From: a virus
Lineage: Duplodnaviria; Heunggongvirae; Uroviricota; Caudoviricetes
Reading direction: 5' to 3' (one strand)
Virus record (IMG/VR): IMGVR_UViG_2541047681_000003
DNA length: 13,070 nucleotides
Below the pieces are notes generated by a model. It had not been told where the DNA came from. It saw only the letters and a program-made list of their open reading frames with translations, and ran no database searches. The stretch's first letter is position 1; every line of letters begins with the position of its first letter. The position numbers and the translations under genes were made by a program. Shown here in pieces: positions 1 to 13,070 of this stretch.

Positions 1-705
1 CTGCCGCTGTTTCCGGCGCATGAATGTTATGTGGAGCCGTTTTGTGGGGCAGCAGCGCTCTATTTTCTTAAGGTACCCGGCAAGATCGAAGTCATTAATG
101 ATATCAACGGTGAGCTGGTGAACCTGTATCGGGTGGTAAAACATCATCTGGAAGAATTTGTACGCCAGTTCAAATGGGCGCTGGTCAGCCGGCAGATCTA
201 CAAATGGCTGCAGATCACCCCGGAAGAAACACTGACGGATATCCAGCGTGCAGCACGGTTCTACTACCTTCAGAAGCAGGCGTTTGGGGGCAAGGTGGCG
301 GAGCACAGCTTTGGTACCTCCACCATATCCCCGCCACGCTTCAACCTGCTGCGTATTGAAGAAGAACTGTCAGCGGCACACCTGCGGCTTTCCAGAACGG
401 TCATAGAACACATGGACTGGCAACAGTGCATAGAACGATATGATCGCCCGCATACGTTGTTCTACTGTGACCCTCCATACTGGGGAACGGAAGGTTATGG
501 TGTGGAGTTCGGACTAGAAAATTATGATCATATGGCAGATTTAGCACGCAGGATCAAAGGGAAGATGATTATATCGGTGAACGATATCCCGGAAATGCGG
601 CAGGCATTCAACGGTCTAAATATTCAGTCGGTTGATATCAGCTACAACCTCAAGATCACTGGCAAATCCAGTCGCAAGAAGGAACTCATTATCCTCAACT
701 TTTGA
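1..705 (+). CDS. DNA adenine methyltransferase, Dam-like; 5'-partial, reading frame is open from base 1
   Basis: Frame is open upstream of the GTG at 31 back to base 1. Translation has CYVEPFCGAAA (compare E. coli Dam motif I, LVEPFVGAG as I recall it) and FYCDPPYWG (DPPY motif IV of N6-adenine methyltransferases). Stop codon at 703-705. Confidence 0.8.
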   Translation: MPLFPAHECYVEPFCGAAALYFLKVPGKIEVINDINGELVNLYRVVKHHLEEFVRQFKWALVSRQIYKWLQITPEETLTDIQRAARFYYLQKQAFGGKVAEHSFGTSTISPPRFNLLRIEEELSAAHLRLSRTVIEHMDWQQCIERYDRPHTLFYCDPPYWGTEGYGVEFGLENYDHMADLARRIKGKMIISVNDIPEMRQAFNGLNIQSVDISYNLKITGKSSRKKELIILNF

Positions 706-1900
706 CCGAATAGTAAGACTTCATGCAGTGAATCAAGTACTGCATGAAGTCAAGGGCTGGTTTTGTGTACCAAAAATAAACAGTGATAGCGGTAATAATT
801 CCCATAACTAGAACACCACGTATAATCCAGAACGTACGTTTCTGCGTGTCTAGTCGCGCAGAAATACTGCTAAATACACCAGCCACGTCATCTTTAATGA
901 AGGAATATTCCTTATTAATCTGTTTTTCTTTGTATTCAATTTCTTCGCCTAAGGCCTTTATAGATTGCATCTGGTTCGAAAGTGCCAGCCAGATTAACGT
1001 TGCAGCAAAAATGCATCCCAGAAGAATTATTGTGTTTGTTATCCCTTGGCCTGACCATTTCGTAGCCACTTTGAATTGGGTAGCTACGATAACAGAGGCA
1101 ACAGGAATGCCAAGTATATGGTTCTGGATATCTGAAAACGCTTTGTGGATTTTACCCATTTCTTCGACTTTTGCAGCACGCAGTTGATCCATTACTTTGT
1201 CATAAGAGAATCCAGAAGAGTAGATACGATACCCTTTCAGAAACTTTTCATGCAGACGCTGAATATTGTCCAGTAAATAAGCGAATACTAGAGGTGAATC
1301 AATTCCATCACTAACTGCTTGAATACTTTCAATCAGAATATCTAGCTTCTGATCCTTATGGGTATCATCATTGAAACAAGCTATAAGGTTATCAAGATAC
1401 TCCCTTTGCAAATTTTGTACATTTTCTGCAGCGAAGTGCGGTAATAGCTTGATAACTTCTTTTTTCAGAAAAACTAACTGACAAGTTGAGTTATCAAAGT
1501 AGGCCGCGGCCTCTTTTAGCAGGTTAACGAACTCGAGAATCTTCCGGTAGTTGCTGATGAAAACGGGGATATCTTCATCATCATTACGAAATTTTGTTTC
1601 TAGGATGAAGTAATTAGCTGGCTCAAGGCACTGATGCTTTGGAGCATTTAGCAATTTTTCATGGGTGGAAAACACAAGTCCCAGTCCACTCCGTGGTGAC
1701 GTCACACGTAGGATGATCGTGTTACCTGGAGCGATAGTGCCTGTATCAATAGAAAGACCATATTCACGAGGATCATCAAGCAAAGTATCAACCAGATCAC
1801 AATCGGACTGATCTAAGAGCAACAGCGAACCGACACGAAACCCCTCTTGGAATTCCATACGACGATACAGAGCTGTCAGCATCTCAAATGAAATCGCCAC
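695..1900 (-). CDS. Membrane-anchored protein of unknown function (401 aa); second gene of the leftward repressor-A-B block
   Basis: GTG start at 1900..1898, 2 bp after the TAA of the upstream gene, with GAGG 7 nt upstream. C-terminal hydrophobic stretches GITNTIILLGCIFAATLIWLAL and FWIIRGVLVMGIITAITVYFWY look like TM helices. The N-terminal ~290 aa look soluble with no motif I recognise. Visibly AT-rich. Confidence 0.6.
   Translation of the reverse strand: MAISFEMLTALYRRMEFQEGFRVGSLLLLDQSDCDLVDTLLDDPREYGLSIDTGTIAPGNTIILRVTSPRSGLGLVFSTHEKLLNAPKHQCLEPANYFILETKFRNDDEDIPVFISNYRKILEFVNLLKEAAAYFDNSTCQLVFLKKEVIKLLPHFAAENVQNLQREYLDNLIACFNDDTHKDQKLDILIESIQAVSDGIDSPLVFAYLLDNIQRLHEKFLKGYRIYSSGFSYDKVMDQLRAAKVEEMGKIHKAFSDIQNHILGIPVASVIVATQFKVATKWSGQGITNTIILLGCIFAATLIWLALSNQMQSIKALGEEIEYKEKQINKEYSFIKDDVAGVFSSISARLDTQKRTFWIIRGVLVMGIITAITVYFWYTKPALDFMQYLIHCMKSYYSVKS
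717..751. repeat. Perfect palindrome, 13-bp arms GACTTCATGCAGT / ACTGCATGAAGTC around a 9-nt loop
   Basis: Read directly from the sequence. It sits 12 bp after the methylase stop and inside the last codons of the convergent minus-strand gene 695..1900. Confidence 0.7.
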
Positions 1901-1902
1901 GA

Positions 1903-2910
1903 TTAAACCTCAGTCATCCACATTTCCCTAAATTCTTCAGGTACATTACGTAGGGTGATAATATTTGTTTCCGGATCATAATCAATATAGCCTTCAGTTT
2001 TCCCTTCCCGGTCAAACTTAAGTTCCCAATATTTAGACTTGCCTTTAAAAGATACCAGAGCCCGAATGACTCGACCATCAGGAACGAAGCCATCCGATAA
2101 CTCCAACTCTTCAGCAGCAAGTTTACCAGATAACTCCTCGGGAGCCTGGGGCCAAATGGCATTAACAAGGGTTTCAAGACTAAGTGGTTCACCAGCCTTA
2201 CTTAGTGCATGTAAGTGTTCAAACGCACTCTTAAGAAATGCATCTTTTTCAGCGCCGTCAAGTCCTTTCTCTGCCGCAAATGCTTTTAAAACGTCACGTA
2301 ACTTTTCAGACTCTCGTTTGGCGATTAAGACATCATTACAGCCTAGGAACTGTTTAAAATAGTTTGAAACATTACCTTGCCCCTTAAGAAAACTGATATA
2401 GCGCTCTGCGCCACTTTCCCACGCGGTTAAGTCAATGCGCCCAGCCATACGCAGCTTAGCAATATCAAGATAGGTACTATCTTGGATGTTAAAATCATCT
2501 GTGACAGTGGACCCAATGGTAGCGCTTACAATAGCTATCAACAGGTGTTCATTGTGTCCTATCACGATATTTGCAAAAAGAACATAACCACCAGTAGCCA
2601 TGTTTTCTCGCTGAGAACGTTCCGTCAGGTGATGCATCATTCGGCAGGAACTTTGGTAGAAATCATCAACACCTTCGAGAAAGTCCCCAGCCATTCGTTC
2701 CATAGGATAGTTATCCGTATCGCCTTCAAAATAGCCATAACCTTTACCTGTGCGTCCTGCATATTTTGCACAAATATCGTTTATAAGGCGCTGAGAGGCT
2801 TCAGTAACTAGACCTTCTTCAGGACTCAATCTCTCAGAAGCGTCTCCATTTTGTTGTTTGTCTAAAATGTGAACTACAACGTGTTTAACTTCAATGGTCT
2901 GCTCAGACAT
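1903..2910 (-). CDS. NdpA/YejK-like nucleoid-associated protein homologue (335 aa)
   Basis: ATG at 2910 with AAGGTGG 6 nt upstream. Same length as E. coli YejK (335 aa). Segments GGYVLFA and LRMAGRIDLTAWESGAERYISFLKGQ resemble my recollection of YejK (GGFVLFC; IRMAARIDLTRWEGGEERYLAFIKGR). This is a by-eye match, not a database hit. Confidence 0.55.
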   Translation of the reverse strand: MSEQTIEVKHVVVHILDKQQNGDASERLSPEEGLVTEASQRLINDICAKYAGRTGKGYGYFEGDTDNYPMERMAGDFLEGVDDFYQSSCRMMHHLTERSQRENMATGGYVLFANIVIGHNEHLLIAIVSATIGSTVTDDFNIQDSTYLDIAKLRMAGRIDLTAWESGAERYISFLKGQGNVSNYFKQFLGCNDVLIAKRESEKLRDVLKAFAAEKGLDGAEKDAFLKSAFEHLHALSKAGEPLSLETLVNAIWPQAPEELSGKLAAEELELSDGFVPDGRVIRALVSFKGKSKYWELKFDREGKTEGYIDYDPETNIITLRNVPEEFREMWMTEV

Positions 2911-2980
2911 TGGCTATCCACCTTATTTTTTATTGCTTAATGGCAAATAATTTCTGCTATATGTTCTCGTTAGGAACACA

Positions 2981-3388
2981 TTAACCCACATTTTTTAACC
3001 GCTCAATCGTTGCGGATAATTCCTTCAGTTGTTTTTCCATCTCAATCACACGCTGTTTTTCTTCAGCGCCTCGCATGAGATCTCGCCGAACCTCAGGATC
3101 TAACTGGTTTAGAAGTTCAAGCATTTTAAGGTCTGACGGGCTGAATTGATGTTGTGTTGGTACAGCAACAATTTCTTTAGATGGAATATGTTCTTTACCG
3201 GTAAGTAGCCAATCGATTGATACACCCAAATGGGTACTTAGCGCAACAAGAGCCTCTGCGTTTGGTTCTCTCTCTCCACGCAAATAGTTTTGAAGTGAGC
3301 GATATGGAATTTTTGATAAGTCAGATAATGCCTTTATTGTCATGCCATTAGCATCCATCACTTCACGCAATCTCTCTTTTGTACTCAT
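2981..3388 (-). CDS. XRE-family helix-turn-helix repressor; candidate prophage immunity repressor
   Basis: Start taken at the internal Met (MSTKERLREVMDANGMTIKALSDLSKIPYRSLQNYLRGE...), which gives a typical N-terminal XRE HTH. It is divergent from the early operon and is followed by a C-terminal coiled-coil-like region. The longer ORF-track N-terminus would cover the promoter region and has implausible composition. Confidence 0.75.
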   Translation of the reverse strand: MSTKERLREVMDANGMTIKALSDLSKIPYRSLQNYLRGEREPNAEALVALSTHLGVSIDWLLTGKEHIPSKEIVAVPTQHQFSPSDLKMLELLNQLDPEVRRDLMRGAEEKQRVIEMEKQLKELSATIERLKNVG

Positions 3389-3404
3389 TTGAACATATCT
3401 CAAT

Positions 3405-3432
3405 TTGACACACTCATTTGGGTGTGTACAAT
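3405..3432 (+). promoter_or_regulatory. Sigma70-like early promoter (-35 TTGACA, 16-bp spacer, -10 TACAAT) overlapped by inverted repeat ACACAC-N8-GTGTGT (3408..3427)
   Basis: Hexamers read directly from the sequence in the divergent repressor/ner intergenic region. The 6-bp-arm inverted repeat spans the -35 and spacer. Direct repeat CAATAGA x2 lies at 3429..3444. Confidence 0.55.
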
Positions 3433-3476
3433 AGACCCAATAGAGTACATCATAACCTAACAGGAACACGGTGCAT

Positions 3477-3701
3477 ATGAACAAACAACAAGTTCGGGCA
3501 CGGCTGGTTGAACGAGGCAGTAGCTTGCGCCAGTTCGCGCTTAACGCGGGCTATGAACCACGAACAGTCACCCAGGCAGTCAGTCGCTGGGCTGGTAAAA
3601 GTGAACTACCTCGCGGTCGTTTGACTTATCGGATTTTGCGAGATCTATCGGTTGCAATAGGTAAAGAAGTTACCCCCGGTATCCTTAAGGAGGCGTCATG
3701 A
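3477..3701 (+). CDS. ner: Ner-like DNA-binding protein (Mu Ner / Nlp family)
   Basis: ATG at 3477 with AGGAA upstream. SLRQFALNAGYEPRTVTQAVSRWAGKSE resembles Mu Ner LSALSRQFGYAPTTLANALERHWPKGE. First rightward gene next to the repressor, as in Mu. Confidence 0.7.
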   Translation: MNKQQVRARLVERGSSLRQFALNAGYEPRTVTQAVSRWAGKSELPRGRLTYRILRDLSVAIGKEVTPGILKEAS

Positions 3702-4006
3702 ATAAACCAAATACATCAAGCTCAGGTATCCGTATTTTGCGCGTTCTTAAGGCCTTACGTGGCCACGCTTTGAACGGTGTTTCTAACGGGGAACTAGCGG
3801 TTGCACTGCACGAATCACCGGCAAACATCAACCGGGCACTTAACACGCTCATTGAAGAAGGGTTGGCTCTGAAACTAGAAAACGGGCGTTTCGCACCAGG
3901 CATCCAGTTGCTGCAGATCGCCATGGCCCACAGTAACGAGATGGCACGTGCACAGGATCGCATTAACGAAATCAACCAACGTGTTATTTCAGGTAGTCGT
4001 TTGTAA
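3698..4006 (+). CDS. Winged-helix DNA-binding protein (IclR/MarR-like HTH)
   Basis: ATGA start/stop overlap with ner. IRILRVLKALRG...VSNGELAVALHESPANINRALNTLIEEGLA looks like a winged HTH. Confidence 0.5.
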   Translation: MNKPNTSSSGIRILRVLKALRGHALNGVSNGELAVALHESPANINRALNTLIEEGLALKLENGRFAPGIQLLQIAMAHSNEMARAQDRINEINQRVISGSRL

Positions 4007-4016
4007 GGAGTAATCA

Positions 4017-4928
4017 ATGGGACGCACCAAATCACCGGTTAGCACTGAACTGAACGTCGAGGTACCGCTGTCGGATGATCTCAATGTCAGTCTAAACGCC
4101 ATGACACAGCATCGCATGGAAATCATGCAACAGTTCGGCGATGGTCTGCCTTATGAGCGCGATCGTGTTGTCCATGAGGCACGCTTTTATATGGCACAGA
4201 GCGCTGAGGCCATGCTGGAGGCAGGTAAGCGGCTGATAATCCTTAAGGAAAATGAACCACACGGGGAGTTTATAAAGATTCTTGAAAGTGAGTTGGGGCT
4301 GGCATACCGGACATCTGTGAGAATGATGCAAGCATCGACAAAATACTTATCCCCGGCGCTGAAACCAAATGTGCCAACGTTGGCACATTTGGGAAAAGCC
4401 AAACTTTTCGAATTAATGACAGAAGACGACGAAGAGCTTGCCGAACTGGCCGACGGCGGCACAGTTGCCGGCCTGACGCTTGACGACGTTGATCGCATGT
4501 CAGTACGCGAACTTCGCCAGGCCCTGCGCGAAGCGCGCGAAACCAACGCAGCACAACAGCGCGTACTCGCCGATAAAAATGAAAAAATTGATTCTCTCTC
4601 TACCAGACTGGAAAAGAAATCCCGTATTCAGCTGCCTGAGCCTGATGAGGAGGTTAAGAAGCTGCGGGCGGAAGTGACAGCATTAGCGGTTGAGGCGGAA
4701 TCTGCTATCGCCGTCCGACTGTCCAGCGCTTTTGAGACACTGTGCGCATATTGTGCTGAAAACATGATTGATACTCCCAGAGACTTCATGGCAGGCCTGG
4801 TCTGTCAACTGGAAAGCACAGCGCGTAGCCTGCGCTCCACATTTGACCTGCCGGACGAGCCAACAGGCGATGTCGCGCCTTCATGGCTGACTGAGCCGAC
4901 GCCACAGATTAACGGGCTGGAGGCATAA
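4017..4928 (+). CDS. Hypothetical protein (303 aa), acidic with a coiled-coil-like centre
   Basis: Strong RBS AGGAG 7 nt upstream of the ATG. Same strand and coding compositional style as the early operon. No motif recognised. Confidence 0.6.
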   Translation: MGRTKSPVSTELNVEVPLSDDLNVSLNAMTQHRMEIMQQFGDGLPYERDRVVHEARFYMAQSAEAMLEAGKRLIILKENEPHGEFIKILESELGLAYRTSVRMMQASTKYLSPALKPNVPTLAHLGKAKLFELMTEDDEELAELADGGTVAGLTLDDVDRMSVRELRQALREARETNAAQQRVLADKNEKIDSLSTRLEKKSRIQLPEPDEEVKKLRAEVTALAVEAESAIAVRLSSAFETLCAYCAENMIDTPRDFMAGLVCQLESTARSLRSTFDLPDEPTGDVAPSWLTEPTPQINGLEA

Positions 4929-4931
4929 CCA

Positions 4932-6701
4932 ATGAATGCTGCCCTGACTGAACGACTGGTTTATGTCGCCCGCGCGGCACGTGACGCGGGGCATGGTAAA
5001 CGCGGTGCAATATACGACGCTGCCTGTGCTGAACTTGGCATGTCCCGCGCCACTCTGCTGCGCAGGCTGAAGGAGGTCTCTGTGACTGATAAACGCAAAA
5101 AACGCGCCGATGCCGGGCGCAGCGCCCTGACCCGCGACGAAGCCGCGCTGATATCTGCCACACTGCGTGAGGCCACCCGCAAGAACGGTAAGCGTCTCTA
5201 TTCCATCGCAGATGCAGTGGAAACCCTGCGGGCTAACGGCTTTATCTCCGCAGGCAGAACAGATGAAACCACCGGTGAGTTTTTCCCGTTGTCCGAAGAT
5301 GCCATCAGCCGTGCCCTGCGTAACTATGGCCTGCACCCGGAACAACTGGATGCCCCTGCGCCGCATACCGAAGTGGCCAGTCTGCATCCCAATCACGTCT
5401 GGCAGATTGATGCCTCGCTCTGCACGCTTTACTACCTGAGCAATGGACACAAAGGGCTGCAGGTGATGGACAGCGCGAAATTCTACAAGAACAAGCCCGC
5501 TAACCTTGCCCGTATCGCCAGTGACCGCGTGTGGAGTTATGAGATTACCGACCATGCCAGCGGCTGGATTTACGTTGAGTATGTGACGGGTGCGGAATCC
5601 GGTGAGAACCTGTGTTCTGTGCTTATCAACGCCATGCAGGAGCGTGGCGGCGCAGACGTGCTGCACGGCGTGCCAAAAATACTCTATCTCGACCCCGGCT
5701 CGGCAAACACCGCGGGTATGACGAAAAACATGTGCCGCTCACTGGGCATCGACCTGATAGCGCACAAGCCGCATAACGCCCGCGCCACCGGACAGGTGGA
5801 AAAGGCGCGGGACATTATCGAACGCAAGCTGGAGCCGGGTCTGAAGTTCCGGCCGGTTCACAGTCTGGAAGAACTCAACGCGCTGGCCGCGAAATGGCGC
5901 AGCCACTTTAACGCCACGGCTGTTCACAGCCGCCACGGTAAAACCCGCACGGATATCTGGCTGAAGATTACTGCTGAGCAGCTGAAAAAAGCGCCTTCCG
6001 TTGAGGTATGTCGTGAACTGGCTGTGGCGGCACCAGAACTCCGCAAAGTCACGCCAAAACTTCGTGTCTCGTTCCGGGGCACTGAATTTGACGTATCAAC
6101 GGTACCGGGCGTACTGGTTGGTGAAAAACTGATGATTACCCGTAACCCATGGCGCAGCGATGTGGCACAGGTGGTTCTGACCGGTGAGGACGGCCACGAG
6201 ACGTTCTTCCTGGTCGAAGAGGTCAGAAAGAACGAGTTTGGCTTTGCTGAAGGCGCGGCGGTATTTGGCGAAAGTTACAAAGCCCTGCCGGAAACCCCGG
6301 CACAGATGGCGGCAAAAGAAACTGAAGCGCTGGTTACCGGTACAGACAACGCCGCAGATGCAGCCGCCGCACGCAAGGCGAAGGCGCTGCCGTTCGGCGG
6401 GCGGCTTGACCCGTATAAACATATCGACGACACCACACTTCCGGCCTATATGCCGAAGCGTGGTCAGGCCTCTGACGTACGCGGGCCGCGCACTGAACAA
6501 CGTCCCATGACTCATGTGGAGGCCGCGAAAGCCCTGCGCGATAAGTTCAGCGCCGACGGCCTTACCTGGACGCCGGAACATTACCGCCAGTTAACGGCAC
6601 AGTACCCGGACGGCGTACCGGAAGCCGCACTGGATGAAGTCATGGCCACGCTGACCACACCGGCCAGCAGCAGTGTTATCAGCATTGTTAACGGCAACTG
6701 A
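4932..6701 (+). CDS. DDE transposase, rve/integrase-core type (Mu A-like role)
   Basis: GGAGG RBS. Candidate catalytic triad D160 (HVWQIDAS), D254 (ILYLDPGS), E290 (ATGQVEKARD), with the D-35-E spacing typical of rve-fold transposases. N-terminal HTH-like MSRATLLRRLKE. Confidence 0.85.
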   Translation: MNAALTERLVYVARAARDAGHGKRGAIYDAACAELGMSRATLLRRLKEVSVTDKRKKRADAGRSALTRDEAALISATLREATRKNGKRLYSIADAVETLRANGFISAGRTDETTGEFFPLSEDAISRALRNYGLHPEQLDAPAPHTEVASLHPNHVWQIDASLCTLYYLSNGHKGLQVMDSAKFYKNKPANLARIASDRVWSYEITDHASGWIYVEYVTGAESGENLCSVLINAMQERGGADVLHGVPKILYLDPGSANTAGMTKNMCRSLGIDLIAHKPHNARATGQVEKARDIIERKLEPGLKFRPVHSLEELNALAAKWRSHFNATAVHSRHGKTRTDIWLKITAEQLKKAPSVEVCRELAVAAPELRKVTPKLRVSFRGTEFDVSTVPGVLVGEKLMITRNPWRSDVAQVVLTGEDGHETFFLVEEVRKNEFGFAEGAAVFGESYKALPETPAQMAAKETEALVTGTDNAADAAAARKAKALPFGGRLDPYKHIDDTTLPAYMPKRGQASDVRGPRTEQRPMTHVEAAKALRDKFSADGLTWTPEHYRQLTAQYPDGVPEAALDEVMATLTTPASSSVISIVNGN

Positions 6702-6711
6702 GGAGGGAAAC

Positions 6712-7878
6712 ATGCTGGTACTGAAGCAGCAACTGAAAGAGGCCCGTATTCCACAGGCGGTGGTGGCGAGAGCTGTCGATGTTTCTGAGGCCACGCTGGC
6801 CCAGATTGTGAATCATAACGCGTGGCCCCGCACCAGCCCCGGAGAAGTGCGCCGGCGTCTTGCGTCCTGGCTGGAAAGTCAGGGGATTGATACAACGAAG
6901 AGTTTTGATGCTGTACAGGGCGCGGCCACGCCCCGTACAGCGGGTACCACAGATAAAACGAGCCTCAGTGAGGAAGAGAATATGTTACTCAAAAAACAGG
7001 TGTTATTTCCAGCAACCAAAAAAGCGTTTGGTCTTTTCCGTGACCCGTTCGCCGACGAAGCCATGCAGGGTTCTGATGATGTGTTCACCACCCCGGACAT
7101 TCGCTACGTGCGTGAGGCGCTGTACCAGACAGCCCGTCATGGTGGGTTTATGGCCGTCATCGGTGAGTCCGGTGCGGGTAAATCCACGCTGCGCCGCGAC
7201 CTGACTGAACGTATCAACCGCGAGAATGCGCCGGTAATTGTTATCGAGCCATACATCATCGCTATGGAAGACAACGATGTGAAAGGGAAAACCCTGAAGG
7301 CAGCAGCTATTGCCGAAGCCATTATCAGTACCATCGCACCACTGGAAAGCATCAGACGCAGTCAGGACGCCCGCTTTCGCCAGTTGCATCGCGTCCTGAA
7401 AGACAGCAGCCAGGCGGGGTTCAGCCACGTTCTGGTGATTGAGGAGGCCCACAGTCTGCCCATTCCGACACTGAAACACCTCAAACGCTTTTTTGAGCTG
7501 GAGTCCGGTTTCAAAAAACTGCTGTCCATCGTGCTGATTGGCCAGCCGGAACTGGCGACAAAACTGTCTGAACGCAATATGGAAGTCCGTGAAGTCGTTC
7601 AGCGCTGTGAGGTGGTCGAACTTCTGCCTCTGGACAATAACCTTGAAGAGTTTCTGACGTTCAAACTGCAACGGGCCGGTAAACAACTGACGGACATTAT
7701 GGACGCCAGCGCAGTGGATGCCATACGTGCCCGCCTGAGCAATCCGGGAAGTCATCGTAAAAATATGGTCAGCCTGCTGTATCCGCTGGCCGTCAGTAAC
7801 CTGGTAATAGCCGCCATGAATCTGGCCGCTGAAATCGGGGTTCCACAGGTCAACGCTGACGTTGTCAAAGGGGTTTAA
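6712..7878 (+). CDS. Transposition ATPase, AAA+ (MuB / TniB / TnsC-like)
   Basis: Start at the internal ATG 6712 with AGGAGGG RBS just after the transposase stop. Walker A GESGAGKST, Walker B-like VLVIEEAH, N-terminal HTH-like segment. Confidence 0.8.
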   Translation: MLVLKQQLKEARIPQAVVARAVDVSEATLAQIVNHNAWPRTSPGEVRRRLASWLESQGIDTTKSFDAVQGAATPRTAGTTDKTSLSEEENMLLKKQVLFPATKKAFGLFRDPFADEAMQGSDDVFTTPDIRYVREALYQTARHGGFMAVIGESGAGKSTLRRDLTERINRENAPVIVIEPYIIAMEDNDVKGKTLKAAAIAEAIISTIAPLESIRRSQDARFRQLHRVLKDSSQAGFSHVLVIEEAHSLPIPTLKHLKRFFELESGFKKLLSIVLIGQPELATKLSERNMEVREVVQRCEVVELLPLDNNLEEFLTFKLQRAGKQLTDIMDASAVDAIRARLSNPGSHRKNMVSLLYPLAVSNLVIAAMNLAAEIGVPQVNADVVKGV

Positions 7879-7880
7879 TA

Positions 7881-8150
7881 ATGAAATCCACCACAGGTAT
7901 CAACCAGCAAATCAGCAAAGTGCAGTCAGCCATTATGGCGCTTAAGGCGACGAACACGGATGTACAAAGCATCACCATCAGGGGTAACAAACCTGTCATC
8001 CGCGTTTCCCGGAGTGCGCATTGCATGCGCATGCTTGAGCAGGGAAAGGCCTGTTATCTGTATACCGGTCATGACCACAGGGGACATTTCCGTCAGGGCG
8101 TTTTCGAACTGCACGGCTGTCGCGTCGTGTGGCCGGAATCTTTGTGGTAA
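7881..8150 (+). CDS. Hypothetical small protein (89 aa), Cys/His-rich C-terminal half
   Basis: Starts 2 bp after the ATPase stop. Sits where Mu has kil, but no sequence similarity could be established. Confidence 0.5.
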   Translation: MKSTTGINQQISKVQSAIMALKATNTDVQSITIRGNKPVIRVSRSAHCMRMLEQGKACYLYTGHDHRGHFRQGVFELHGCRVVWPESLW

Positions 8151-8177
8151 TCAGCACAACAGGAGGAGTCATAAAAT

Positions 8178-8708
8178 ATGGCAAAAAGTACAAAAGGGGC
8201 AAAACGTATCAAAGCCGCAGCAGCACTCTGGGTGCCGGGGACACGCGAAGAGGTCATTGAGGGAATCAGACTGCTTGGTGACGCGCAACGTGAACTGGTC
8301 AGGGCTGAAACAGAAATGAATGACACCATTGGCGACATCACTGCACGTTATGCCCCGCTCACCGAGAGCCTGAAAAAACGCATGGCCGAACTGCAGTCCG
8401 GTATCCAGACATGGTGTGAGGCGCACCGTGATGAACTGACCGGCAACGGGAAGGTGAAGTTCGCTAACCTCACCACCGGCGAGGTGCAGTGGCGAAACCG
8501 TCCGCCGTCAGTCAGCATTCGCGGGGCGGATAATGTTATTGAATTACTGAGACGTCTGGGGCTTGAGCGCTTTATTCGTGTAAAGGAGGAAATAAATAAA
8601 GATGCCATTCTGAATGAAAAAGAGGCTGTGAAAAATATTCCCGGTATTACCATAAAAAGTGATATTGAGGATTTTTCAATAATTCCTTTTGAGCAGGATG
8701 TGCAGTAA
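8178..8708 (+). CDS. gam: Host-nuclease inhibitor protein Gam (Mu Gam family)
   Basis: AGGAGGAG RBS. Length and sequence (RLETEMND-like AETEMNDTIGDITARYAP, WCEAHRDELT, SVSIRGADNVIELLRRLGLERFIR, ITIKSDIEDFSIIPFEQ) closely follow Mu Gam as I recall it. Confidence 0.85.
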   Translation: MAKSTKGAKRIKAAAALWVPGTREEVIEGIRLLGDAQRELVRAETEMNDTIGDITARYAPLTESLKKRMAELQSGIQTWCEAHRDELTGNGKVKFANLTTGEVQWRNRPPSVSIRGADNVIELLRRLGLERFIRVKEEINKDAILNEKEAVKNIPGITIKSDIEDFSIIPFEQDVQ

Positions 8709-8750
8709 ACACACCACGTTAATTATTTAATAAAAACATTTTCTTTTTTA

Positions 8751-8787
8751 TTCCGGCGTCAGCGCCGCGGGCTTCTGCACGCCGGAA
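8751..8787. repeat. GC-rich inverted repeat TTCCGGCGT / ACGCCGGAA (9-bp arms, 19-nt loop) in the gam-downstream gap
   Basis: Read directly from the sequence. Preceded by an AT-rich tract, with no T-run after it on either strand. Confidence 0.5.
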
Positions 8788-8805
8788 ACAGAGGAGAATT
8801 AAATT

Positions 8806-9000
8806 ATGATATTTAAATGTATTCAGTGCGAGAGGGATATAACAGCCCTGCGTTTTCACAGCGCCATCGCCGTGATGTCCGGTAAGTATCACATACCTGC
8901 AGTACGTGTCACCCTGGTCTGCCCGTACTGCAGCCAGCATTTTTCGGCGGACGTGCCCGTCATAGAATTCTCCCGCCCTGACAGGGAGGACGCGCAATGA
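8806..9000 (+). CDS. Small zinc-ribbon-like protein (64 aa)
   Basis: GGAG RBS. Two CxxC pairs (CIQC ... CPYC). Confidence 0.5.
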   Translation: MIFKCIQCERDITALRFHSAIAVMSGKYHIPAVRVTLVCPYCSQHFSADVPVIEFSRPDREDAQ

Positions 9001-9269
9001 TTACCCCACAGGAAGCACGACAGCGCACCCGAACTCTTGTTGAACACTATGTCAACGAGTGTGAATGCCGCGACCTCACCGATGTGAAGCACGTCCTGAC
9101 GGCGCTAATCAGCATGGCCACACAGGCCATTGTGGCGACCAACGGAAAGGAGGCTGCCCTGCAGGTACTGATGAACACACTCACCCACACGGCAGAGCAT
9201 GAGGTGCCGTACCGGATGGAAACCACTGCAGAAGGCGGCCTGCACATCACCGTCAGCCGGAAGCACTGA
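8997..9269 (+). CDS. Hypothetical protein (90 aa)
   Basis: ATGA overlap with the upstream stop suggests translational coupling. No motif recognised. Confidence 0.45.
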   Translation: MITPQEARQRTRTLVEHYVNECECRDLTDVKHVLTALISMATQAIVATNGKEAALQVLMNTLTHTAEHEVPYRMETTAEGGLHITVSRKH

Positions 9270-9278
9270 GGGCGCGGC

Positions 9279-9575
9279 ATGACACGAAACACCGAACTCA
9301 CCCGCACCGCCCTCTACCGTCTGGCCCTGCAGCGTTTCGGGCCGGACGCACAGGCCCTGAAACTGACAGAAGAGGCCGCTGAACTGGCGGCCAGTGCTGC
9401 CCGCAATCTGAACGGACAGGGCAGCGAAAGTGACCTCGCGGCAGAGCTGGCAGACGTGGAAATCATGACAGAGCAACTGCGCCTTCAGGGGATGGACCGG
9501 CTGATTGACTTCCACAAACAGAAAAAACTGGAACGTCTGGCTGCACGACTGGGCGTGATTTACACGAACGAGTAA
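9279..9575 (+). CDS. MazG-like nucleotide pyrophosphohydrolase (small all-alpha NTP-PPase)
   Basis: GAGGG RBS. EEAAELAASAARN ... ELADVEIMTEQL fits the E-x2-E ... E-x2-D metal-binding pattern of MazG-like proteins. Confidence 0.5.
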   Translation: MTRNTELTRTALYRLALQRFGPDAQALKLTEEAAELAASAARNLNGQGSESDLAAELADVEIMTEQLRLQGMDRLIDFHKQKKLERLAARLGVIYTNE

Positions 9576-9589
9576 CCGGGAGGCATTCA

Positions 9590-9805
9590 ATGGCTGACAT
9601 ACTCAGGGAAATCACCGCATGGACACTGATTCTTACTGGCCTGGCGACATGCCTCAGTGCGGGGGCAGCCCTGGCTGCCCTGCTGATGCACATAACAACA
9701 CAGTGGTTATGGGAAAAGCTTAAAGCAGCATACAGCCTGAAAGAGCTGTCCGACGCTGTCCGGGCATGGAAACGGCAGAAAAATACCGGAGATACAGAAC
9801 AATGA
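9590..9805 (+). CDS. Small membrane protein (71 aa, one predicted TM helix)
   Basis: GGGAGG RBS. Hydrophobic stretch ITAWTLILTGLATCLSAGAALAALLM. Confidence 0.45.
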   Translation: MADILREITAWTLILTGLATCLSAGAALAALLMHITTQWLWEKLKAAYSLKELSDAVRAWKRQKNTGDTEQ

Positions 9806-10485
9806 CAGACCAGAATAAACACATTGAGAAACTGAAAAAGTTGCTGGCGCTGGCCGCATCCGGCAACCCGCACGAGGCCGCTCTGGCACTGCGCCGAGCC
9901 CGTAAACTGATGGATGTTCACGGCATCACACATTCCGACATTGCTATGAGTGATATTGATGAAACCATCAGTCATTACTGGCCGACAGGCAGTCTCCGTC
10001 CACCGCGCTACATGCTGGGCCTGATGAACATCATCCGCGAGGCATTTGGTGTTAACTCCATCATTCACCCCGGCACGCATCCGTCTGTGGGGTTCTACGG
10101 TAACCGGGAACGAGCGGCACTGGCTGCGTACACCTGGGAAGTGCTGGTCCGCCAGCTGAAAAAGGCGCGTCAGCAGTATATCAGCGCACAGAACAAAAGA
10201 ATAAAAAACGCCACCCGTACCAGCCGTGGAGACCAGTTTGCTGAAGGCTGGGTACTGGCCGTTATCAGTGAAATACAGTCCTTTGCCCTGACCGATGATG
10301 AGCGTGAACTGATGCAACAGTGGCTGGAACATAAATACCCGCAGACGCAAACCACCAGGGCGCGTAAACCGGGAAGAAGCCGCAATGGCGACGCCTCGCG
10401 CTATGCGGGGTTTCGTGAAGGGCAGAACGTCAGACTGCACCGCCCGGTCAGTGGGCAGGAACAACAGAAACTGGAGGCCAGATGA
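9802..10485 (+). CDS. Phage protein with DUF2786-like N-terminal motif (227 aa)
   Basis: Start at internal ATG 9802, overlapping the upstream stop as ATGA. KHIEKLKKLLALAASGNPHEAALALRRARKLMDVHGIT resembles the DUF2786 signature as I recall it. Confidence 0.5.
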   Translation: MTDQNKHIEKLKKLLALAASGNPHEAALALRRARKLMDVHGITHSDIAMSDIDETISHYWPTGSLRPPRYMLGLMNIIREAFGVNSIIHPGTHPSVGFYGNRERAALAAYTWEVLVRQLKKARQQYISAQNKRIKNATRTSRGDQFAEGWVLAVISEIQSFALTDDERELMQQWLEHKYPQTQTTRARKPGRSRNGDASRYAGFREGQNVRLHRPVSGQEQQKLEAR

Positions 10486-10712
10486 TTACGCTATCAGGTA
10501 AAAGCCGGAAATTAAAAGCCTGCCGAATATCTGCCAGATACCTTTTTGCCCGCGCCTTTTTTAAGAACGTCAGGCCGGGGATCACAATTGGTGTTATTGC
10601 CGGACGCGAACAGGTTGAAAAATACATGTCAGGTGCATGGTGGAATAACGACCCTGTCATTGCTGCCCGTAATATTCATATCGAATGGGGAGGTATTCAG
10701 AATGACTACTGA
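10482..10712 (+). CDS. Hypothetical protein (76 aa)
   Basis: ATGA overlap with the upstream gene. Basic N-terminus. No motif recognised. Confidence 0.4.
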   Translation: MITLSGKSRKLKACRISARYLFARAFFKNVRPGITIGVIAGREQVEKYMSGAWWNNDPVIAARNIHIEWGGIQNDY

Positions 10713-10908
10713 AACCATTGTCTGTTTTCTTTTCTGGTATATGTACGCAGGATCATGCAGCGCAAGACTTCATCGTTCCCTGGGCTATGGCAGGCACTAC
10801 GACACCGCGCATTACATCCTGTACATGACCGCCGTCATGTTGTTCTGGCCAGTCACCCTGCCAGCTGCAACCGACATTGTTGCCGACAGACTGAAAAAAA
10901 GGAGATGA
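10702..10908 (+). CDS. Small membrane protein (68 aa)
   Basis: Internal ATG of ORF 10546..10908 with GGGGAGG RBS. Hydrophobic stretches IVCFLFWYMYAG and ILYMTAVMLFWPVTL. Confidence 0.4.
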   Translation: MTTETIVCFLFWYMYAGSCSARLHRSLGYGRHYDTAHYILYMTAVMLFWPVTLPAATDIVADRLKKRR

Positions 10909-10909
10909 T

Positions 10910-11359
10910 ATGCAGAAAAAACGCCTGATACAGCTTATCCATATTGCCCGTAATGAACTGGGTATGGATGAAGACACCTACCGCCAGATGTTACAGGGGC
11001 TGACCGGTAAAGCCTCAACCAAAGGAATGGATACCACACAACTAAACTGCGTGCTGGAATCCATGAAAAAGAAAGGCTTTCGCGTTAAACCAGCCAGAAA
11101 AGCCAGCTCCGGTTTACCGCTGGATAACCATCCGCAGTCCAGGAAAATTCGTGCGCTATGGCTTGAAATGGCTGCTGCCGGCATTGTTCGTGACCGTTCA
11201 GAAAATGCATTAGCGCGGTGGATCAAGCGGGAAACGGGCATCAGCGCCCTGCGCTGGCTCAATACTGAACAGGCAAGCAGTGTTATTGAGAAACTGAAGA
11301 AGTGGCAGCACAGAGCTGCGGGAGTAAAACATGAGCGACCTGAATCAGTTTCGAAGTAA
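10910..11359 (+). CDS. gemA: GemA-like protein (Mu gp16 family)
   Basis: AGGAG RBS. N-terminus KKRLIQLIHIARNELGMDEDTYRQML resembles Mu GemA (KAQLIAKIHIAKKQLNMDDDTYRAML as I recall it). Lies immediately upstream of the Mor-like gene, as in Mu. Confidence 0.65.
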   Translation: MQKKRLIQLIHIARNELGMDEDTYRQMLQGLTGKASTKGMDTTQLNCVLESMKKKGFRVKPARKASSGLPLDNHPQSRKIRALWLEMAAAGIVRDRSENALARWIKRETGISALRWLNTEQASSVIEKLKKWQHRAAGVKHERPESVSK

Positions 11360-11729
11360 AGGGCCGGAACTCCTGGTGGAGCTGGCACAGCATACCTCTG
11401 AGACCGTTCGCGAGATTATTGATATTGAGCCCGCAATTGCCGACCAGATTGGTCAGGCCGTCGCGAACCGAATGATGCAGGTCTGGGGCGGGCAAAACGT
11501 TTATTTCCCGATGGGCATGGTATGGAAGGTCAGTCAGCGCGACCGGGAAATCTTCAGGGAGTTTAACGGACGCAACCACCACGAACTGGCCCGCAAGTTT
11601 GGTGTTTCGCTTCAGTGGGTCTACAGCGTGGTTAAGCGGGTCAGAAAAGAAGAACTGGATCGGATGCAGGGCAGGTTGTTTGATGAAGATCTGCCAGAGG
11701 AGACGAAAGACGTTAACAAATCCAGATAA
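11331..11729 (+). CDS. mor: Mor-like transcriptional activator (Mor/C family)
   Basis: GGGAG RBS. C-terminal HTH region REFNGRNHHELARKFGVSLQWVYSVVKRVR resembles Mu Mor (NDFNGRNVSELTTRYGVTFNTVYKAIRRMR as I recall it). Last gene before the terminator. Confidence 0.7.
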   Translation: MSDLNQFRSKGPELLVELAQHTSETVREIIDIEPAIADQIGQAVANRMMQVWGGQNVYFPMGMVWKVSQRDREIFREFNGRNHHELARKFGVSLQWVYSVVKRVRKEELDRMQGRLFDEDLPEETKDVNKSR

Positions 11730-11771
11730 TTCCTGCTTGTTAAAGTCCTTTCAAAAATCTCCTTATTGTAT

Positions 11772-11805
11772 AAAAGCACGGTAGACCCCTTACCGTGCTT
11801 TTTTT
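11772..11805 (+). terminator. Rho-independent terminator ending the early operon
   Basis: Stem GCACGGTA / TACCGTGC with 7-nt loop GACCCCT, followed by seven T residues, preceded by AAAA. Located 43 bp after the mor stop. Confidence 0.8.
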
Positions 11806-11843
11806 ATGCTCTCTCTTTAGTATTCAGGATGCAGGGAGAAAAT

Positions 11844-12476
11844 ATGTTTGACGTTTCGTTGTTAAATCTGCCATGGGCAACACTGGTGACCCTGACCAGT
11901 GGCTATATTGGGTATTTTATTGCGAATGTGGGACTGAAGGATCACCACAAGCCCATTGAGGTGACTTTTTCTTCGCTGATTTTTGGCCTGACAGCAATGA
12001 TGGCTTACCAGGCTGTTATGTGGGCAGGTCTGAATGCCTGGCTGGCAACACCACCAGCACTTCTGTGTGCCGTTACATGCGGTGCGTGGTGGCGCAGGTA
12101 CGGTCGCAAATGGATGTACAGATTACTGTGGAATAATGATGTTTCATGGTCTGACGATACCAGCTCAGCATGGCAGGCAATGTTTGATCAAACAGGCTTC
12201 AGCGTTACCGAGGTCAGAGTGATTCTTCGCGATGGTTCCGGTATGATGTCACGGCTGCCAGGGAACTTTGAAGAGTGGCCTAACGGTCCGTTTACCCTGG
12301 GGAATAAAGGCGATATGGTTCTTTACGTCACGCACAGCAGCCCTTCAGGCAGTAACGAATGGGAAGAGTATAAAGGCGTGGTTGATAAGTACTGGGGAGC
12401 TCTGGCAACCTATATTCCAGCAGATCAGATTGCCAGAGTGGAGATCAGGCGCGTTCGTGCAACGAACGATGAATGA
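11844..12476 (+). CDS. Membrane protein of unknown function (210 aa): about three N-terminal TM helices plus a soluble C-terminal domain
   Basis: ATG at 11844 with GGGAG RBS. The ORF-track start at 11766 would read through the terminator hairpin. Hydrophobic stretches WATLVTLTSGYIGYFIANVGL, SSLIFGLTAMMAYQAVMWAGL and PALLCAVTCGAWW. Confidence 0.55.
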   Translation: MFDVSLLNLPWATLVTLTSGYIGYFIANVGLKDHHKPIEVTFSSLIFGLTAMMAYQAVMWAGLNAWLATPPALLCAVTCGAWWRRYGRKWMYRLLWNNDVSWSDDTSSAWQAMFDQTGFSVTEVRVILRDGSGMMSRLPGNFEEWPNGPFTLGNKGDMVLYVTHSSPSGSNEWEEYKGVVDKYWGALATYIPADQIARVEIRRVRATNDE

Positions 12477-12720
12477 TGTTTATTTTTTCCCTGGGGCAGG
12501 GGCTGCCGGCATAGTGGTTTTATTGGCAGAGGAAGACGATTCTCCTTTTCTACCGGAATCGCGCTCGAACGTCACGATGTGCTTGCTTTTGGGCTTTTCT
12601 GAGTAATCCAGGCTATCATGCTTATTGTTTTGAGTAGTCATTGGAATCATCCTTTTTGTTGCGGGTCATGTTTCAGCAAACTCGATTCTAAGTTGCCAGG
12701 AAGGATGATTTCAATGCCCG

Positions 12721-12837
12721 ACTTATCTATCGTATAGCGGAAAAGAATTTCAGTTCTGTTCACCAGAACCCATGTTAACCCACTCCAATTCGTTATTTAT
12801 CTCACGGATCCCCCTTCATTTATCTCATGTCTGATCA
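12721..12837. repeat. Terminal non-coding region with direct repeats ATTTATCTCA (12795..12804 and 12818..12827) and a degenerate copy ACTTATCTAT (12721..12730); candidate transposase-binding sites at the element's right end
   Basis: Repeats read directly from the sequence, two perfect copies 23 bp apart. Element-side sequence ends ...TCTGATCA (CA at 12836..12837) next to host kefC-derived sequence. No ORF on either strand between 12607 and 12837. Confidence 0.5.
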
Positions 12838-13070
12838 CTTTGTGGATCGAGTTCGAGGCCGATAATAAACAGCATCAGCACCACGCCAATCTCGGCAAAG
12901 TGCAGAATAGATTCGGCATCGGTCACCAGTCGCAGCCCCCACGGGCCAATAATGCAGCCGGCGATCAGGTAGCCAAGAACCGATCCCAGACCGAGACGTA
13001 CCGCAATGGGAACAATCAGCGCCGCCGAACCGAGATAAATCAGCGCCTGAATAAGCGTATGGCTATCCAT
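12838..13070 (-). pseudogene. kefC: kefC 5' fragment: first ~78 codons of the glutathione-regulated K+ efflux gene, then unrelated sequence and a stop
   Basis: Translation [77 protein letters not shown] matches the E. coli KefC N-terminus as I recall it. The reading then becomes SDQT-stop instead of RLWKL.... Junction uncertainty is about 3 bp. Confidence 0.75.

Follow-up and report, generated by a model that had tools for sequence, protein, structure and literature searches.

The window, by which we mean the whole 13,070-nt stretch of DNA analysed here, consists of one arm of a prophage joined to the beginning of a host gene, kefC (Table 1). Alignment to complete E. coli genomes accounts for nearly all of it, as 98% of its length matches prophages of strains N61 and GIMC1410 at 99.9% identity, and the prophage arm is 99.4-99.7% identical to the copies in KE50 and M-17.

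Table 1. Features of the window and target duplications flanking complete copies of the prophage in other E. coli genomes
Feature	Position	Strand	Basis or remark
BcepMu-type transposable prophage, early-gene arm (12.8 kb of ~38 kb)	1..12837		alignment to complete prophages
dam-type DNA adenine methylase, partial	1-705	+	PADLOC type II MTase E=9e-101; first ~30 codons outside window
HTH repressor, CI/Cro type, divergently transcribed	2981..3391	-	Pfam HTH_3 E=3.5e-12, Phage_CI_repr E=1.5e-6
Transposase, 589 aa, rve/DDE integrase core	4932..6701	+	Pfam rve E=1e-8
MuB-like AAA+ ATPase (ExeA family)	6712..7878	+	Pfam AAA_22 E=3.6e-20
Gam host-nuclease inhibitor	8178..8708	+	PF07352 Phage_Mu_Gam on identical gene (L004); RefSeq annotation
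GemA	10910-11359	+	PF06252; RefSeq annotation
Mor middle-operon activator	11331-11729	+	PF08765; RefSeq annotation
Prophage terminus ...TGATCA (terminal CA)	12791..12837		same end abuts unrelated host DNA elsewhere
Chimeric 81-aa ORF	12825..13070	-	77 KefC residues + S-D-Q-T, then TGA
Host kefC 5' fragment	12838..13070	-	codons 1-77 + first two bases of codon 78
6-bp target-site duplication, one copy, CTTTGT (ACAAAG in kefC sense)	12838..12843		repeated at other prophage junction
Target duplication GCTATC, N61			site: cysteine hydrolase gene
Target duplication GCTGGT, M-17			site: rstB
Target duplication CTCAGA, KE50			site: flagellin gene
Target duplication TCGTGG, GIMC1410			site: fadM
Target duplication ACAGGA, MS1494			site: kefF

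The kefC fragment and its boundary

The minus-strand open reading frame that closes the window begins with the kefC start ATG, which is the window's last 3 nt, and its translation runs MDSHTLIQ...GLELDPQ, followed by SDQT and a stop. The first-pass annotation had matched this frame to the N-terminus of KefC, in agreement with our searches: the fragment agrees at 233 of 233 nt with kefC from many E. coli genomes (100%, E = 8e-118), and it matches kefC in 5,423 of the 5,426 complete E. coli genomes. At the point of divergence the intact kefC of strain D8 reads ...CACAGC|CTTTGTGGATCG where the window reads ...TCTGATCA|CTTTGTGGATCG (with longer flanks, ...TTTCCACAGC|CTTTGTGGATCG and ...CATGTCTGATCA|CTTTGTGGATCG respectively). 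This comparison therefore places the break exactly at 12837|12838, between the second and third bases of codon 78 (AG|G, Arg), which sharpens the earlier estimate of an interruption after about codon 78. The stop reported four codons after the divergence is also there: the codons past the break are AGT GAT CAG ACA and then TGA, and the SDQT they specify is encoded across the junction and the prophage terminus. In the Pfam Na_H_Exchanger model (E=1.7e-12), stub residues 16-77 correspond to model positions 3-65 of 375, and therefore only the first ~17% of the transporter domain is left in the 81-aa ORF.

An exact look-up found the 81-aa protein only on scaffold KE698823.1 (74,679 bp) of the E. 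coli HVH 4 assembly GCA_000456065.1, where its entry is EQN25168.1, named 'kefC', and in a Logan contig from SRR785151. On this scaffold the fragment lies directly behind an intact kefF (176 aa) with the usual 8-bp overlap, and yaaU, fixXCBA and the cai genes follow upstream in normal order; the kefC fragment sits at its native locus. This bears on the possibility, raised in the first-pass annotation, that the divergence reflects a real alternative KefC sequence of the species or that the fragment duplicates a kefC intact elsewhere. All that speaks for a genuine short KefC variant or a duplicated pseudogene is that an 81-aa ORF annotated 'kefC' exists, but the divergent tail is the end of a prophage, present at many unrelated loci, the fragment occupies the native position after kefF, and kefC is single-copy in complete genomes. 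We give such a variant or duplicate a negligible probability. The prophage on KE698823.1 runs toward the scaffold end, and the second junction therefore had to be elsewhere.

The prophage, its ends and its insertion sites

Inward from the terminus in the window, the prophage encodes a 53-aa ORF, a 210-aa membrane protein, Mor, GemA (gp16 family), a DUF2786 protein and Gam, then an ExeA-family AAA+ ATPase, a 589-aa rve "integrase catalytic domain" protein, a DUF3102 protein and two small HTH proteins. Innermost in the early arm are a divergent CI-type repressor, an NA37 nucleoid-associated protein, a 401-aa protein and the dam methylase. Past dam, on the opposite strand, come holin/transglycosylase/spanin, terminase, DUF935 portal and head genes, and further on sheath/tube/tape-measure/baseplate genes, tail-fibre genes and a Gin-like recombinase. 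The N61 and GIMC1410 prophages likewise continue into lysis, head and contractile-tail genes; the contractile-tail late genes are P2-like, and the full element in related copies is ~38 kb by RefSeq annotation. Pfam confirms the rve, AAA_22, HTH_3/CI, NA37, Gam, GemA and Mor assignments.

By tblastn the transposase is 98.6% identical to that of Escherichia phage PhiKM, the closest deposited phage, which is filed in GenBank under Bcepmuvirus, and 93.5% identical to that of Klebsiella phage KP12. The rve (Tn552-like) transposases of the Burkholderia phages phiE255 and BcepMu are 69.4% and 68.5% identical, and the match to BcepMu gp09 spans 98% of the 589-aa protein. The prophage has in common with BcepMu, phiE255 and PhiKM an AAA+ MuB-like ATPase beside the transposase, the presence of Gam, GemA and Mor, an early operon that reads toward the closer genome end, lysis, head and contractile-tail genes on the opposite strand, and TG...CA termini. 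An ExeA-family annotation directly follows the transposase in all related prophages, and from this position and family the MuB-like ATPase is presumed to be the target-DNA activator. It differs in being a lineage of E. coli, in its DNA, of which just 66% of the arm is matched by PhiKM (at 95% identity), and in having its own accessory cassette (NA37 protein and membrane protein) between the repressor and dam. Judged from its sequence, the prophage classes as BcepMu-type transposable (Mu-like) and Bcepmuvirus-like.

The cassette consists of two low-GC genes (0.37-0.44; window 695-2910, minus strand). One encodes a 335-aa nucleoid-associated protein of the NA37/NdpA family (Pfam E=1e-80), and the other a 401-aa protein for which no Pfam family was found and whose C-terminal residues 262-394 weakly match KwaA, the membrane subunit of the Kiwa defence system (PADLOC E=8e-5). 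The pair may form a moron with an accessory or defence role. In other prophage variants the match to the window covers only 74% of its length. Between Mor and the terminus, the 210-aa predicted membrane protein (window 11844-12476, plus strand) and the 53-aa protein (window 12480-12641, minus strand) are conserved in all prophage copies examined, and neither gave a Pfam or PADLOC family.

The terminus at the kefC break contains ATTTATCTCA twice (12795-12804 and 12818-12827), so that GATAAAT occupies nt 14-20 and 37-43 counted from the tip; the other end of the prophage begins TGATG, again with GATAAAT at nt 14-20 and 37-43. These terminal repeats are probably transposase-binding sites. Five complete copies (N61, M-17, KE50, GIMC1410 and MS1494) start TGATGCGCC... 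and end ...TCTGATCA, and such TG...CA termini are typical of prophages related to BcepMu whose transposase is Rve and Tn552-like (PMC2628397). The terminus ...CATTTATCTCATGTCTGATCA is joined to unrelated genes, among them fadM, rstB, yecR, mdfA, yeiB, flagellin, irp1, flgA, yfaV, clbG, tdh, xylR and kefF, and the prophage right end has at least 24 different flanking genes among the matches listed. A complete right end is present in 118 of the 5,426 complete E. coli genomes, and in every lineage examined the insertion site is different and has its own 6-bp duplication. This phage lineage of E. coli inserts at many sites, often inside genes. An integrase-type prophage acting as a reversible switch ('active lysogeny') was considered and rejected, there being no integrase and no fixed att site, and the sites being variable: the prophage annotations contain no tyrosine integrase, and the sole recombinase annotated is the Gin-like resolvase adjoining the tail-fibre genes.

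The prophage resembles coliphage Mu in being temperate, in transposing to near-random sites where it inactivates the gene hit and leaves a short target duplication, in its TG...CA ends with repeated transposase-binding sites (putative in this phage), and in its pair of A (DDE) and B (AAA+) proteins. Target duplications of coliphage Mu are 5 bp, in contrast to the perfect 6-bp direct repeats seen here in six of six junction pairs, the kefC insertion included; this 6-bp figure for the lineage comes from the junctions measured here. The gene order is also inverted relative to Mu. In the phage collection the transposase matched 69 records; the 25 listed are phages of BcepMu, phiE255 and Pseudomonas type, with no Mu record among them.

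We also note that a 144-nt piece of the prophage end (window 12684-12828), 89.7% identical and without the last 9 nt, occurs in many listed E. coli plasmid records, with 105 of the 305 places found in this search lying on plasmids. In pSA186_2 (L021 3001-3144), the sole copy examined, the piece has no annotation, with IS1/IS3 debris and a LysR gene nearby. It resembles the fossil end of a related phage.

The second junction and the rebuilt gene

The other junction was predicted from the 6-bp duplication rule before it was found. In window orientation it was expected to read ...CCACAGCCTTTGT|TGATGCGCCGCG, with the phage start at that position as ...CCACAGCCTTTGT|TGATGCGCC. The ORFs possible in the remainder of kefC were enumerated from ten candidate start codons; the 535-, 529-, 526-, 504- and 501-aa versions were absent from the protein collection, and the 527-aa version (start M94), which is the longest ORF of the kefC 3' part, was present as EQN24413.1, 'kefC' of E. 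coli HVH 4. This ORF lies on scaffold KE698830.1 of the same assembly, GCA_000456065.1, in the order baseplate gp25, N-gaps, tail-fibre assembly, Gin-like resolvase, phage end, 527-aa ORF, folA, ccdAB and apaH. The junction on KE698830.1 reads ...TTATCGCGCGGCGCATCA|ACAAAG|GCTGTGGAAACTGCG, which is exactly the predicted junction with the duplication. The second copy of CTTTGT is at L010 9561-9566 on this scaffold, and intact kefC has a single copy. The remaining kefC codons, which the first-pass annotation had suggested looking for beyond the element, are found here after the duplication and are followed by folA. No in-frame start was found in the phage-derived leader of the kefC 3' half, and there is therefore no chimeric protein on that side.

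When the 5' piece (233 nt) is joined to the 3' piece minus one copy of the duplication, the product is identical to D8 kefC at 1863 of 1863 nt, which answers the comparison with an uninterrupted locus that had also been proposed, and the annotated distance between folA and kefC is the same as in D8. The exact rebuilding of the gene, together with the matching duplication, therefore shows a simple transposition insertion, as the first-pass annotation had supposed in the first of its two readings. No host bases were lost at the insertion and neither half has decayed since; this, and a prophage arm 99.9% identical to copies in other strains, indicates a recent event. The two deposited HVH 4 'kefC' proteins are halves of one disrupted gene. 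What might have been a duplicate is thus one half of a single split gene in the kefF/folA neighbourhood, and a second, intact kefC would be improbable in HVH 4, given that essentially all of the 5,423 genomes having the gene carry one copy.

The second reading in the first-pass annotation was that a rearrangement had ended at kefC. A larger deletion or inversion, produced for example by recombination between two prophage copies, would be compatible with a window that holds one junction only and with HVH 4 scaffolds that end inside the prophage, and some E. coli genomes have 2-4 copies of related prophage sequence, which would permit such recombination. However, the same assembly contains the complementary junction with an identical 6-bp duplication; kefC is rebuilt from its two halves without gain or loss of a base, and each half has its usual neighbours (kefF-yaaU-fix and folA-ccdAB-apaH, respectively). 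At most, a later inversion could have occurred on top of the original simple insertion. Given the reciprocal junction and the exact rebuild a rearrangement is not needed, and we consider it very unlikely.

The two kefC junctions are on different scaffolds, each of which breaks or has N-gaps inside the prophage. On KE698830.1 the N-gaps (L010 690-6759 and 8067-8836) fall in the tail and tail-fibre region adjoining the Gin-like recombinase, and the scaffold break is inside the prophage; an invertible tail-fibre segment could have confused the short-read assembly here, as could a second related prophage. As HVH 4 is a 2013 short-read draft with prophage gaps, one could suppose an assembly chimera in which a prophage contig was mis-joined to a kefC contig. 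However, the junction is also present in an independent Logan assembly of SRR785151, a mis-join would need to coincide with the true terminal CA of the phage, and the reciprocal junction is on the other scaffold with a 6-bp duplication, the length found in five other genomes. The probability of a chimera is accordingly close to nil.

We hold it almost certain that a BcepMu-type prophage of ~38 kb transposed into kefC of HVH 4, splitting the gene and leaving the strain kefC null. At the sequence level, the insertion can be regarded as proven and an alternative allele as excluded. This explanation draws on both junctions, the duplication, the exact rebuilding of the gene, the transposase family and the multi-site insertion seen elsewhere; the strand-transfer chemistry is inferred. 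A temperate BcepMu-type phage would have integrated into kefC by DDE-transposase strand transfer, with its two 3'-CA ends attached at kefC cuts staggered by 6 bp, and gap repair would have duplicated CTTTGT. The gene would thereby have been cut within codon 78, leaving an 81-aa stub and, 38 kb away and adjoining folA, a 3' part without a promoter. The stub (TM1 to about TM3) would stay behind kefF and its promoter, and neither piece should be able to form the 13-TM K+/H+ exchanger with its RCK gate, giving a kefC null. Precise excision would not occur at a useful frequency, and we infer that the kefC mutation is effectively permanent, not a switch; the lack of precise excision at a useful frequency in Mu-type prophages is established for Mu and assumed for this phage.

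Distribution of the insertion and predicted consequences for KefC

The kefC/prophage junction was found in none of the 5,426 complete E. coli genomes, where no record covered at least 80% of window 12300-13070, and an exact search of IMG/VR viral contigs with the junction 30-mer gave 0 matches. Contigs with the exact match came from 2 NCBI and 4 Logan samples, possibly all of one strain. Because none of the 5,426 complete genomes shares the junction, the insertion is strain-specific, and it is a private, recent event of HVH 4. In the literature, a search for prophage insertion in kefC found nothing relevant, one ST131 paper treating a kefC SNP only.

All 5,426 complete genomes have the kefFC operon, and in 5,422 of them it is contiguous. 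In the avian isolate MS1494 (NZ_CP097724.1; L019 3819-3864, L020) the same type of prophage lies in kefF, at nt 146-151 of 531, in the opposite orientation and ~612 bp from the HVH 4 kefC site. The kefFC operon has here been hit a second time, independently. By a rough, post hoc estimate the chance of a second hit in the same 2.4-kb operon is ~2-3%, given perhaps 40-70 independent insertions among the complete genomes, and the two hits are suggestive but post hoc. That kefFC is a recurrent target of this phage family, or that its loss is selected in extraintestinal E. coli, seems to us improbable.

Other contigs with the same 527-aa C-terminal KefC ORF have different lesions in kefC. In GCA_964049275.1 (L009) a 1-nt indel yields 94-aa and 527-aa ORFs, in ERR264278 (L011) there is a 208-nt deletion near the 5' end of kefC, and in contig L015 kefC has several small gaps. 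This variety of lesions indicates that kefC is occasionally inactivated by other routes.

KefC is a 13-TM CPA2 K+/H+ exchanger with a TM1-TM8 dimer interface, an ion site comprising S125/T127 (TM5), Q155/D156 (TM6) and K307 (TM11), and a glutathione-binding RCK gate at the C-terminus (PMC11150392). The HVH 4 locus agrees with E. coli KefC (PDB 8BXG) in its 77 native residues, which are identical, and in having kefF upstream and folA downstream. Unlike in KefC, the gene is split, and the 13-TM core and RCK domain are not in one polypeptide: the 77-residue stub holds none of the ion-binding residues, TM1 is absent from the 527-aa ORF, and no single HVH 4 polypeptide unites the 13 TMs, the ion site and the RCK/KTN gate. 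As predicted from its sequence, the 3' part would be without a promoter, a ribosome-binding site and TM1-3, and, lying behind the Gin-like gene, it could receive at most read-through transcription. HVH 4 should be kefC null, with kefF intact and its partner apparently lost.

Glutathione gates two systems in E. coli, KefFC and KefGB; methylglyoxal acts chiefly on KefB, through S-lactoylglutathione, and N-ethylmaleimide (NEM) adducts activate Kef efflux (PMC10224563). Because of this second system, KefGB, loss of KefC should reduce rather than remove glutathione-gated K+ efflux, chiefly for N-ethylmaleimide-type electrophiles. The first-pass annotation had expected the loss of KefC to remove this efflux; its expectation holds as regards a reduction and fails as regards complete removal, since KefB, a paralogue of KefC, is normally encoded in E. 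coli too. The prediction for HVH 4 would be weaker K+ efflux and cytoplasmic acidification under N-ethylmaleimide-type electrophiles, with KefGB remaining.

What happened to kefC is of an ordinary, textbook kind: a transposable phage of a known genus inactivated a well-studied gene by inserting into it. It corrects the reading of two deposited 'kefC' proteins (EQN25168.1 and EQN24413.1) of the HVH 4 assembly, and it documents 6-bp target duplications and many insertion sites for this phage lineage of E. coli. Its meaning beyond HVH 4 is small, that of a clean, resolved example of BcepMu-type insertional inactivation in clinical E. coli.
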